From the NCBI GenBank assembly GCA_964106645.2, contig OZ067049.1: a stretch of 64,000 bases of DNA, one strand, 5' to 3'. The notes beneath the pieces were generated by a model. The model saw only the letters and a program-made list of their open reading frames with translations. It was not told the DNA's origin and did not search any database. The DNA is from Podarcis pityusensis (Eukaryota). Made by a program: the position numbers and the translations under genes. Position 1 is the stretch's first letter; each line of letters begins with the position of its first letter. Shown one piece after another: positions 26,761 through 62,975 of this stretch.

Positions 26761-26804
26761 CTGTTTGGGTATCTTGCATGCATGCATGCATGCATGAATG
26801 AATA

Positions 26805-29160
26805 ATTAATGCTTATAATGCACCCATCTGGCTGGGTTGCCCCAGCGCCTCTGGGTGGCTTCCAACACATACTAAAAACATAACAGAACGTCAAATATTT
26901 AAAACTTCCCAATACAGACTTCCGGGTTAGCGCCATTGGCGAATGGCGGAGTTCCTCCGACCGGAGGAACTAGCTCCGTGAAAACTGGGTCTTCCCGCCG
27001 TAGCGAAGGCGGGGACCCGCTAGAAATCCCAGGCGGAGGAAGCTTGGGAACGTGGGGTTCGGCAGGGCACCAGGAGCGCCCCCCCTACTCACCGGGAACC
27101 CCATTTTGGGGCGCCGGAGCGAAGTGGGGTGAGCGGCGCGGTGCTGCGAACTGATTGCTACTTTCACGGAGTGAAGCCGCACAGCCATTGCCAGAGAGCG
27201 CTGACTTTTTCCTGTGGACAATTGGATTTAAAACAAGTACCCGTGAGTAGAAACGGAAAATTGGATCAAGAAATATCTTAATTTGGCATCGAAGCGGGAA
27301 GGTTCAAAACAGGAAGTCCACCTTCTGCTTTTTGTATATAGACTAAAGCAAAAACCTTGTAAGCTAAAGCCTGGAAAGTCGTTAAAAAAGTCTAAATTTC
27401 CTTCATTTATAACTACTGAAACCCCCTTGGAAGCAGGAGAAAAGGGGGGGGGACTTTGTTTAACCCCTGCAGGAGAGGGAGTGAAGAAAGATATGTTTTC
27501 ACCGTCTCTAACCTGGGAACGGGGTGTCAGAGACAGAAATAGTTGGAGAGGTTCATTGACTGTGAATGGAATACTTTGACAGATAGCTAAAGAAGAGAAA
27601 TAAACTGATTCCAATGTTGCCTTTTGCATTCTAAAGAAACAAAATATCTGAAAAATGAAAGTAATTTTCCTTTGCTGGACTTGCCTTAAAAAAAATGGAT
27701 ACAAATAGAAATTGTCTCCTCTAGAGGGAGCTTGTTAAATTGTTGCTGCAGTCTACTTGAGGACTCGACAGCTGTGAGATTAAGATCGTGGGACCAGTCT
27801 TTTTTGACCTTGACTAAATATGAGGGAGGAAGTTTGGGTGCTTGCTTTATGCAAGACAAGTGCCTTGTTGGAACAGATGCATGAGAAGATGGATTTGATG
27901 AATGAGAAAATTGACTTGATGACTGTTGTGGTTAATAACTGTGGACAAACAGGGAATATTGATACAGAAACCATTCAGGGACCAACTCATGAACCTGTAC
28001 TGACTGGGCAAGTGCAGAAGATAATGGAGGAGGATGCGGTTGCACCTCAAATAATACAAATGGAGAGACCCGAGGCCCTACAGGAGCATAAGCTGCTGTC
28101 ATCGAAGATTGAAGTTGGAGTGGGCCAGGGGGAGTCTGGAGCTGAGGAGGTTCTTAATTTTGGAGAGACTTTGAAATATGCTTTTAAATACTTTTTGGAT
28201 TACATTGATGACTGTGGGGAGTGGGACTGTGGGGAATGGGCTGGTTTGATGAAGGGAGATGGAGATAATTTTGGGTTGGAATCCCCCAGAGACCTACTCC
28301 TCAATGAGAAAGGAAAGAAATTAAGAAAGAGACCAACAAAAGACAAGGAAAAGGGCAAGTATAAACAAGAAGAAGAAGATCTGCAGAAGGGACATGGAAG
28401 AGACTTAAGGGCCTCGGACATAAGATTACCAGGTTGATGGACTAGATGGAATGGACAGTAAGGACTGACACGACCCGAGACCAGGAAGAAGAGACGTTGG
28501 ATGAAGACTGGAAGAAAATTTATAAAGAAATTTTTTTTCCCTAGGGAATTGGCCTAAAATTAATGAATATTAGGGAAAATGTTGGAATGAAACTATATGA
28601 CTTTAGTAGAAATGATATCAGGAGTTATGTATAATCGAGTATTAAGCTTTAAGTTTTAAAGTATTTTACGGTAAGATAAGGTTAAATAAACTAAGGTAAT
28701 TTGAATAACAGAACATGGGGAAAAGATGGAAAGGATTTGTTGAGTTAATTAATAGGTTAAATTGTTAAGATAAATTATTTAATGAAAATTGAGAAAGATG
28801 GAAAGAATTTGCTGAAATAACTAATCAAATTAGAATACAAAAAGGGAGGTGTGAGGAGGTCAACGAAACAAGCAAATGGAAGTTAAAGATATGTAATATG
28901 GGATTTGTGTTTTTTTTCTTTTCTTTTTGTATTTTTTTTGCTGTATTGTTGTATTGGTTTTTGTGTTTTGCTTTTTTCCCCTTCCTTTTTATGTATTGTA
29001 GTGTTGTTTTTAATTTTTTCTCCCCCCCCCCGTAATTCTGAAATCTTTAATAATTTTTTTTTTTTTAAAAAAACAACTTCCCAATACAGGGCTGCCTTCA
29101 GATGTCTTCTAAAAGTTTTGTCGTTCTTTATCTCCTTGACATCTGATGGGAGGGCAGCCA
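26805..29160 (-). mobile_element. L2-type 3'-end fragment split by the 26918-29074 insertion (host parts ~26805-26917 and ~29075-29160)
   Basis: The two halves join into a sequence collinear with the uninterrupted copy at 62755-62975 (CCCATCTGGCTGGGTT...AAAACTTCCC..ACAGGG..GCCTTCAG...TTGACATCTG..GGGAGGGC). Confidence 0.75.
26918..29074 (+). mobile_element. Non-autonomous L1-derived retroelement (~2.16 kb) with 15-bp TSD
   Basis: Exact TSD AACTTCCCAATACAG at 26903-26917 and 29075-29089; CpG-rich 5' end starting (G)ACTTCCGG; 205-aa ORF 27820-28437; short ORF2-C-terminus-like remnant; T/A-rich tail; no EN or RT. Confidence 0.8.
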
Positions 29161-32018
29161 GCATCTGCCAAGAACGCTGCTGCTGCCATAGTTAAGCCCA
29201 TCCCTCCTACAAACTTTTTAATTATTTCGTCTCCTGAAAAATTGCCAATGTGCCCATTGGGGGGGGGGCAGTTTGCTCAGCTCTGGCGTTACCCACACTG
29301 CAGTTAAATTGCCACAAATCAAGGTTTACTCAGGAAACGCTGCTCAAATGCAATGGACCAGCAAGGACATTGTGTGCCACTCTGTAGAAAAGTGAGCAAC
29401 ATTCCAAAGGTCGGCGATTCCAATGGAAAGGACCAGGATGAGAGCAACCCTGGGCAATGCTGCCATGGCAAGGAGAACATTCTGTGGACTCTTCCTGTGT
29501 GACCTGGTGGAGTTTCAGACATAAGCTTCCTGATGCAGGAAGGAGCCATGCTAGTTTGTCACCTGGATCACACACCTGGTGCGCTTCCAGACTGTTGCTA
29601 TTTTGGGGTCAGATTCAGTCACGCACTGGCAAAATCAGGTTGCGCAGTTGTAGTAGATTGAGAGCTCTTGCCCCAAACACCCACCTTCCCCAAAGAATGG
29701 GCTTCCTTTGCAGTAGGGAGGGTGATGGGGGAATACACCAGGAAGGCTTTCTTTGATGGAAATACCCTGAGATCTACGGATAAAGGGTAGTGTACAAATT
29801 TAATAAATAGTAAATAATAACACTCCCCCCACAAAGAGACCTGAAAAAATGCATATTAAATTGTTGACGTTATCTATTCTTCCTGCAAACAAATCAGGAT
29901 AAATACTCAATGAACAGAATCTGAAGGGCTCAGCACACCTCGTCACCTTTTATTGATTTATTTCACAAGGTTTTATATACTGCTTAAACAGGAAAAAAAC
30001 CTGAAGTGGTTTATAGCAACAAAATAAAACATATGCAAGAAAGTACTTATAATGAATACTTTAAAAAACAAGTAGATGTATTGTAATTTATCAAAATATA
30101 GGTAAAAATCAACAGTTTTTCGAACCTCAGCCCCCTCAATTGGGGGGGGGGGCTCAACCCCCTGCCCACCAATACTGAGGGGGCTGAAGCCCCTTCCACC
30201 CCCTATAGTTGGTGCTCCTGTTGGCTAACATTTATAGGCATGGAATTCCAGAGATTAGGTGCTGCCCCACGAAAGAATGAATTCCTTGCAATTGCAGGGT
30301 TGTTTAGTTGTTTGTGGTCTGTTCTACACATTCAACACAATGCAGAGCAGTAATATGCTAGAGGTATTGGGGGGCATGGAGCTGGCTAGAGTGGACTGCA
30401 TAACATTAGGTTGCAAGTGGGGGATCTCATTTTTGAATGCTCCCCCTTTGGTAAAAGAAAAGAAATTCACAAAAATAGAAAACCAGCGCAACAGGAAAGG
30501 GCTAGAATACTTCTCTCTAATGTGATAGTCTTCTATTTGTAGTTTGTTGTTTACATGGAGAAGTATTCAAAATCAGAATGCCACCCCTCCTCCTCCTGTC
30601 GTCTACAGTGGTACAGTTCAGCCTATTGCTTCAGCCTTCTATCTCTCATTACTCTCCTATGGAAGAGGGACTATGGAATCTCCACAAACGTTCACACACC
30701 ATCAGAAAAGCAGCACCGGCACACACTGCCCCGCTTTTTAAAACCCAGCACGGCCACTTATTTTCCCATTGGCATGGTGTATCTGTGCCTGGAACTCCAC
30801 CCGTCATATATTACATGTGTGCCAGCTTGCACGTGTGCCAATGTTCAAGGTGCAGGAAAACAATAGACATGGAGGGGGGTGCTAAAAAGTGAAAGTGCAA
30901 GCCCATTTTTCCAAGCACCTGATCTCAAAATGCACCCTTCAGAGATGCGTTGATCTTCTTCTCCTCCTTTTTAAAAAATGAACAAAATTATGAAAAGTCA
31001 GCAGTGTTAACAGATAAAGGAATAAATAGGTCAGAGGCACAAAATGTGCTAGAGGGCAGCTTGAGTTTTGATATGGCAGGCTTTTGACTTTCAAGGAGTT
31101 CCTCTGCCCGCCTGGGGAGGGCTGGGGGTGGGGTGTGCCACTCAGTGACTAATCCTTTGGCCACTGGCTCACACAAACATGTTTTTAAGCTCTTTGTGCA
31201 ATCGGCAGGGAAGGAACACGTTGTTCTCTTTGGCACCCGCCCAATATAACTTGTGAGAATGGAAGAACAATGCCAAGCAAGAAACGACAGCTTCTGCAAC
31301 GGGCTCTGCAAAGCGGAGCAATGTATGTTTACCAAGCATTAGCATCTCAACCTTCCCACCCCCAAATAAGGGATGGAAAAAAGAAATAGAAAGCGGAACA
31401 AGGCAGAAGCGGCAGCTTCTGGCAGAGAACTTGTTTCCTCCTCCTGAAGGTTATTTTCAGCAGTTTTGTAACTTGTATTTACAGCATTGTCTTCTGGATC
31501 GCTCCCTGTTCACCTGACAAAAGAGTCTGCCGCTGATTTAAACCACTCAATTAATTTCCATGCGTCTGGAGCTAAGAGATACCAATGGGAGGCAGGCTTA
31601 ACTTTCCCTTTTTATGCTCGCAGCCTCAAAACAGCTGGAATAATCTTCCGGCTTTATTGAAACGGGCTCCCATATTGCCAAACATTAGGACACCCTTAAT
31701 CCTTCCGTTTTAAAAAGCCTGGCTGTGCCGCATAAACAGAAGCTGCATGGCTGTTAGGGACAGCTCTGAGGCCTTTTCCTCCTGTTTACACATGCAGGAT
31801 TTCAGCTGCTACCACGCATAGTTGGGATGAGACACTGAAAGGGGGGGGCGGATTTAAGCAGGGCAAATTGGTTCTGGAACCCTGCATCCTCGGGATTTGC
31901 AGGCTGGGTTCCCTCCAACTGAAGTCAAGTCAAGGTTCTCCAAGGGGACAGTGTTGTTGTTGTTGTTTCTAAGAAGGGCAAATGATTCCTAGGGGAATAT
32001 GAAACACTTTCCTGACTA

Positions 32019-62710: not shown

Positions 62711-62975
62711 AATAATAATAATAATAGTAATAGTAATAATAGTAATAATAATAATTTATTATTTATACCCCGCCCATCTGGCTGGGTTTCCCCGGCCACT
62801 CTGGGCGGCTTCCAACCGAATATGAAAAACAACAAAGCATCAAACATTAAAAACTTCCCTAAACAGGGCCGCCTTCAGTTCTCTTTTAAAAGTAAAATAG
62901 TTGCTTATTGCCTTGACATCTGCTGGGAGGGCGTTCCACAGGGCAGGCACCACTACCAAGAAGGCCCTCTGCCTG
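62711..62975 (-). mobile_element. L2-type 3'-end fragment with (TTA/CTA)n tail
   Basis: Same family as the host of the 26918-29074 insertion; trinucleotide tail at 62711-62755. Confidence 0.7.

Follow-up and report, generated by a model that had tools for sequence, protein, structure and literature searches.

Half-L1 elements and other ORF1-only LINE dependants

The half-L1 elements (HAL1) of mammals reportedly go back to descriptions by Smit in 1999 and by Bao and Jurka in 2010. As they appear in passages of PMC5753468, PMC3627910, PMC5786205 and PMC8535693, they encode ORF1p, an RNA-binding chaperone; they are L1-derived and non-autonomous, have one ORF1-derived protein and neither endonuclease (EN) nor reverse transcriptase (RT), retain their promoter, kept coding over long amplification and originated repeatedly and independently. 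HeT-A (Jockey clade) and Ag-Sponge (CR1 clade), which belong to other LINE clades, are classed in a passage of PMC5786205 as ORF1-present bipartite LINEs; they, too, have a single protein of ORF1/Gag type, for which multimers with the helper protein that enhance transposition were proposed, and that passage mentions no loss of the RNA-binding part. Interaction of coil-only or divergent-coil proteins with full ORF1p is described for human L1 in passages on truncated ORF1p (PMC5605252) and on coil heterotrimers (PMC10588031); there, however, such proteins are products of dead copies or of constructs, and L1 is suppressed by them, whereas the family described here was amplified to thousands. No squamate half-L1, and no half-L1 without RRM, is reported in the openly available full-text literature searched, and HAL1 is not mentioned in passages of PMC5203782; a library consensus for the element may well exist already.

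The element lies in the genome of the lizard Podarcis pityusensis (contig OZ067049.1), in a stretch of 64,000 nt that was analysed as a whole and is called the window. The original prediction took it for HAL1-like, and in layout it is: it is derived from L1 with 5′ UTR and 3′ end kept, contains no endonuclease or reverse transcriptase (about 3.8 kb being absent), was amplified as a unit into many copies with their own target-site duplications (TSDs), and holds a single ORF1-homologous ORF kept open during amplification. Its mobilisation in trans by L1 ORF2p is presumed, with TSDs of 9-24 bp, an A-rich target start, the extra 5′ G in 17 of 21 copies, an A-tail and the presence of a helper as indirect signs. 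The likeness ends at the protein, which is acidic and has lost its basic N-terminus together with the bulk of the RRM, whereas HAL1 is described, in secondary passages, with a whole RNA-binding ORF1p (coil, RRM and CTD); nor is the host of HAL1 a squamate. The element works like HAL1 and yet is a variant, not a plain member, the distinction being drawn from HAL1 descriptions. It extends half-L1 elements to squamates. Two other classes were rejected: an autonomous L1, because ORF2 is reduced to an 86-nt relic, and a SINE, because the head is an L1 5′ UTR and not small-RNA-derived and the ORF is under selection.

The insertion and its host repeat

The 2157-bp insert occupies exactly positions 26918-29074 and is bracketed, as predicted, by an exact 15-bp TSD; its parts are collected in Table 1. 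The 5′ end is CpG-rich (the first 330 nt have a GC content of 0.61 and a CpG observed/expected ratio of 0.92), the 3′ part is AT-rich, the ATG-started ORF of 205 aa is present, and a motif scan found no EN or RT motif within the insert. The claim that insertion was into an L2-type tail stands in part: a host repeat was split, and its joined flanks match an uninterrupted relative in the window at 162 of 202 aligned bases, but its L2 label stays tentative, as no RT linking the repeat to L2 was met in the nine host-tail matches among the fetched loci. The same host repeat harbours further copies of the element elsewhere (L122 and L002 flanks). The 3′ UTR contains an internal duplication of 32 nt (28722-28753 and 28794-28825, 84%) that is single in the helper L1, and at about 38600 (+) and about 59600 (-) the window holds a pair of RT fragments with FADD motifs that belong to other LINE clades.

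Table 1. Features of the element and its surroundings (positions in the window unless a locus is named)
Feature	Position	Strand	Basis or remark
Left target-site duplication	26903..26917	+	15 bp, AACTTCCCAATACAG
Right target-site duplication	29075..29089	+	AACTTCCCAATACAG, identical to left copy
Older host repeat into which the element inserted	26797..29175 (flanks 26797-26917 and 29090-29175)	.	Relative at 62747-62962
L1-derived 5′ UTR	26918..27819	+	75% over 1-479 to L073; 73% over 1-751 to L210
CpG-rich head of 5′ UTR, likely internal promoter	about 26918-27247	+	CpG content
ORF, 205 aa, shrunken L1 ORF1	27820..28437	+	hhalign and pairwise scores
aa 1-42, about six heptads, only confidently helical part	27820..27945	+	omega 0.34
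aa 43-98, eroded remainder of ORF1 coil, predicted disordered	27946..28113	+	omega 0.74
aa about 99-115, remnant at former RRM of about 92 residues, boundaries approximate	28114..28164	+	
Eroded CTD (aa about 116-186), acidic to begin with, and with a Lys-rich stretch	28165..28377	+	
aa 195-202, conserved tail motif	28402..28425	+	From repeat in parent ORF1 tail; omega 0.03
Junction of ORF1 tail and ORF2 3′ end	28428..28444	+	Short microhomology on both parent sides
Non-coding relic of last ORF2 codons	28435..28520	+	81% over 86 nt to L073
L1-derived 3′ UTR	28521..29074	+	Ends in AATAA-type signal, T-run, short A-tail
Family E copies	L191-L200, e.g. L192:356-2597 (G000:C4, about 54064258-54066500)		

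A family mobilised in short form

Searching the genome with the insert gave 7,900 candidates, and among the best 40, which were scored and include the window copy itself, 38 extend to both ends at 91-97% identity, 36 of them as a single match that starts no later than base 4 and runs at least to base 2091, and two more in two pieces. Under a strict rule (a TSD of 9-24 bp abutting both ends) 21 of 30 inspected loci have their own TSD, all different; one or more extra bases ending in G are found at the 5′ end in 17 of these 21, and the insertions show an A-rich target start and an A-tail. For a degenerate pattern of eight codons near the ORF end the genome holds 2,967 exact matches, compared with none for its reversed control; copies cut off 3′ of this motif escape the count. 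The family has roughly 3,000 copies. When the first 60 matches on C1 were taken in order, 49 extended to the 5′ end, and an ORF of at least 190 aa was found in 34 of the 49; in a set selected on DNA the ORF is whole in 25 of 30 copies. Most sister copies encode 206 aa, one codon being missing near the start of the window copy. Protein searches found three Podarcis lilfordi hypothetical proteins (87, 76 and 34% identity) and a fourth relative (39%), each leading to further TSD-flanked elements of 2.0-2.2 kb with the same layout, two of which match P0003 exactly. A set of proteins annotated as hypothetical in lizards is accounted for by the family. The family has radiated widely, and in subfamilies that share about 70% DNA identity the ORF is still open. 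Subfamily B (L032-type) has, at the former RRM site, an extra in-frame segment of 33 codons. One element copy (L203, G000:C19:26670005-26676805) lies within an autonomous L1.

A single ordinary L1, deleted after it had inserted and left with an ORF by chance, would account for the L1 origin of the parts, the only point in favour of such a course; it is refuted by dozens of loci with the same structure and different TSDs and by the thousands of motif matches, and its probability is negligible. That the family was mobilised in its short form, as a non-autonomous L1 derivative, is supported, and in this the original prediction was right.

Descent from co-resident L1s

An RT query derived from the flanks yielded 88 scored L1 matches, many with a frame of 1251 aa; the fourteen that were fetched (L061-L074) are L1s of 6.1 kb with an ORF1 and an EN-RT ORF2, and the 1251-aa ORF2 matches RVT_1 (E 1.8e-38) and Exo_endo_phos (E 1.7e-13). 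A second L1 lineage (L201-L210, up to 6.3 kb) is nearer to the element. Both are young full-length lineages, several members having both frames open; the ORF1 tail of L201-L210 contains a repeated RASDRRSP unit. The helper ORF1 profile matches the RRM-CTD of human ORF1p (2ldy, E 5e-4) and the structure model of helper ORF1 the human ORF1p trimer (E 1e-9), by which the positions of coil, RRM and CTD are placed.

Element and co-resident L1s have in common the 5′ UTR (73-75%) with its start GACTTCCGG, the coil, CTD and tail of ORF1, the ORF2 tip (81% over 86 nt), the 3′ UTR with a AATAAATAT-type end, and the TSD length; unlike the element, the L1s measure 6.1-6.3 kb and have a full ORF1 (omega 0.24) and ORF2. 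The DEDWKK peptide does represent the last residues of ORF2, as had been suspected, the match being to an intact-type L1 ORF2, and the missing 3.8 kb of L1 (endonuclease, RT) fall at the element junction. The RRM-region motif of complete L1s has 141 exact matches versus the 2,967 of the element motif, a ratio of element to helper of about 20:1 that is rough, as the RRM motif was made from the fetched L1s, is less degenerate and contains CpG. In the older subfamilies the 5′ UTR is far removed from that of the young L1s. In Podarcis muralis, two annotated TRIM39-like proteins (P0012 and P0013) contain 72% of an L1 ORF1 at 66% identity and are either a RING/B-box fusion or a gene-model artefact.

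A shrunken ORF1p

The ORF had been thought to be either a divergent ORF1 or captured sequence; the former is borne out and the latter is not. From coil start to tail, hhalign aligns it with helper ORF1 at a probability of 97% (E 3.8e-11), a profile comparison with 39 ORFs gives 98-99% to ORF1, and in all six of the proteins compared the pairwise score to the L210 ORF1 is above that of any of 200 shuffles (233 for ORF versus ORF1, the shuffle maximum being 74). General databases gave little: no Pfam family matched the ORF at E<=10, the best match to a PDB sequence with the element profile had an E of 0.09, and the ESM Atlas gave one match at 0.77, which is uninformative. A genome search with PF02994 gave no match and is uninformative as well.

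The element ORF begins at the methionine that stands in front of the coil in ORF1, at about aa 51-54, so that the basic N-terminal 50 aa are missing; the coil is colinear with that of ORF1 apart from small deletions, and its identity to present-day helper ORF1 is modest. The N-terminus had been called heptad-like, and the hydrophobic heptad positions are indeed conserved; a 21-nt tandem repeat of 2.2 copies in this region (27876-27922) suggests that heptads may have been gained by duplication. The RRM is reduced from about 92 residues to about 16, and the CTD is recognisable with its conserved aromatic residues lost. An AlphaFold model has a mean pLDDT of 42, and aa 2-44 are its only credible helix. 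The tail motif was considered as a novelty of the element and rejected as such, since a precursor exists in the closer L1 lineage (L201-L210). The family is a natural deletion series of ORF1, in which the first heptads and the tail motif were kept and the RRM and the basic N-terminus dropped.

It is quite unlikely that the protein acts as a self-sufficient miniature ORF1p, forming homotrimers through its heptads and using the Lys-rich remnant of the CTD to bind its own RNA, in the way presumed for classical HAL1 proteins. The heptads are conserved, the Lys-rich stretch (aa 161-183) has a net charge of +8, and aa 101-186 are under some constraint (omega 0.64, p 0.006), all of which would fit; but the protein is acidic (pI of about 4.8 versus about 9; 4.65-5.4 in nine of ten element proteins and 8.97 in one, compared with 8.3-9.2 in ten ORF1s), the RRM is missing, up to 22 residues have disappeared from the Lys-rich stretch in subfamily B, and no folded domain is predicted, albeit by a low-confidence model.

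Selection on the open reading frame

Retention of the ORF and dN/dS across copies had been put forward as a check; the frame is kept open, and omega is 0.57 (LRT 72) over aa 1-194 in a set of 39 intact ORFs, of which the ordered sample supplied 34 and five are references, broken copies being excluded. The other two sense frames give 0.94 and 0.90, and pseudo-codons of the 5′ UTR give 0.91, 0.93 and 0.82, the last of which departs from 1 (p 0.0007). Regional values were taken from 16 copies chosen without the motif, a set that includes protein-similarity rows and hence has a mild bias: omega is 0.34 for aa 1-42, 0.74 for aa 43-100 (no significant departure from 1), 0.64 for aa 101-186 and 0.03 for aa 195-202, where codons change synonymously between subfamilies. 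Selection on the element protein is concentrated in the first six heptads and the 8-residue tail; helper ORF1, for comparison, has an omega of 0.24 as a whole, with its coil, RRM and CTD at 0.15-0.20. A tail value from the motif-picked set was discarded as circular, 34 of the 39 rows having been chosen by that motif, and replaced by the 16-copy value; NG86 ratios of about 0.4 were discarded because they ignore transition bias and so overstate selection.

Shared indels point the same way: in the ORF six of eight keep the frame, compared with 10 of the 47 that lie in the 5′ UTR (p 0.005; 41 full-length copies, with 8 divergent ones omitted), and shared frame-shifting indels number two in the ORF and 37 in the 5′ UTR. 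For the inner branches, the chance that a neutral frame would stay free of stops is about 1e-18 by substitutions alone. The length stays at 191-211 aa throughout, while segments were gained and lost in frame. After insertion, the 34 of 49 intact frames fit neutral decay (the no-stop probability is 0.59-0.75 at the median tip length of 0.017); the omega of 0.52 on tip branches may come from unsampled source lineages.

These values bear on the idea that only translation matters, in which an open frame would keep the RNA stable and ribosome-bound, where ORF2p takes poly(A), while the protein does little. The overall omega is high (0.53-0.57 versus 0.24 for helper ORF1), the middle of the protein is near neutral, length is held despite the in-frame gains and losses, and a second family, treated below, retains even a scrap of ORF2 in frame. 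Residue-specific constraint on the heptads and, with synonymous codon change, on the tail would not be expected from translation alone, and we consider this explanation unlikely, if less so than a self-sufficient protein. Even more improbable is a benefit to the host, with the truncated coil as a dominant-negative damper on L1. According to passages of PMC5605252, human L1 can be suppressed in trans by truncated ORF1p in which the coil is present, the count of complete-type L1 motifs is low (141), and omega on the tips is below 1; yet the intact fraction is about that of neutral decay, selection is found on the lineages that multiplied, and no single conserved locus is prominent. Damping of L1 by the truncated coil may occur as a side effect.

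A second RRM-less derivative

A search with another ORF1 fragment found a further family, E, in which all ten fetched copies (picked for a frame of 305 codons) encode 283 aa, with the N-terminus and coil of ORF1 fused in frame to the C-terminus of ORF2; RRM, CTD, EN and RT are gone. The protein has a pI of 10.1, seven of the ten copies have a TSD at about 2.2 kb, and the junction has 251 exact matches in the genome. In a 5′ UTR tree of 22 rows, from which rows without a detected anchor motif had been dropped, family E nests within the young helper lineage; a clade of family E and the window family is rejected (p-AU 0.0007), and a single origin of the window family is not rejected (p-AU 0.37). 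Omega is 0.31 in the ORF2-derived part and 0.48 in the coil, on a short tree. Family E is a younger, independently derived family with the same outcome, coil kept and RRM dropped; the loss of the RRM was repeated.

How the protein may act

A protein kept by a selfish element must help that element's own RNA, to which selection has to return; and as the RRM is lost, the nascent chain is the simplest plausible link in cis. The reading to which we lean, if with little more than even confidence, is that the heptads act as a hook on the nascent coil, entering ORF1p trimers of the helper and bringing the element's own RNA to ORF2p. The RNA would be transcribed from the internal 5′ promoter and capped; on translation of the cut-down ORF1 the N-terminal heptads would emerge first from the ribosome and could join the ORF1p trimers that a complete helper L1 makes, with the rest of the chain still in synthesis; the hooked mRNA would thereby reach helper ORF2p, which would perform target-primed reverse transcription in trans. 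Internal promoter, capped RNA, trans-mobilisation by ORF2p and target-primed reverse transcription are established L1 biology. Action as a nascent chain would also account for the way in which the approximately 160 residues behind the heptads retain length and frame yet change in sequence.

Passages of PMC10588031 describe distinct human ORF1p coils that heterotrimerise only on co-expression, and one of PMC5786205 proposes that ORF1-only elements multimerise with helper proteins. To be set against the hook are the suppression of L1 in trans by human ORF1p consisting of N-terminus plus coil (in part of PMC5605252) and the expectation, in part of PMC10588031, that hybrid trimers are inert. Six upstream ATGs in the element 5′ UTR (seven in helper L210), the modest coil identity, the distance of the older 5′ UTRs from those of the young L1s, the sparse RNA reads treated below, the omega of the ORF2 part of family E, the tip omega of 0.52 and the one 5′ UTR control frame that departs from 1 were also counted against it. 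It is possible, though on balance doubtful, that the coil hook is a distinct strategy of LINE dependants for beating the cis-preference of L1 and arose twice from the same L1 lineage. The element bears on two open questions, namely how the preference of L1 for its own RNA is escaped and what role the fast-evolving coiled coil of ORF1p has; since the genome holds both young copies and helpers with their frames intact, hooking, translation alone and dominant-negative action could be separated by trans-complementation.

RNA reads of a related label are sparse, have patchy low depth, are from both strands and represent diverged subfamilies; they contain no spliced joint at the CCGTGAGTA of the 5′ UTR. 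This splice-donor-like site (27240-27249) is conserved between element subfamilies and helper L1 5′ UTRs.
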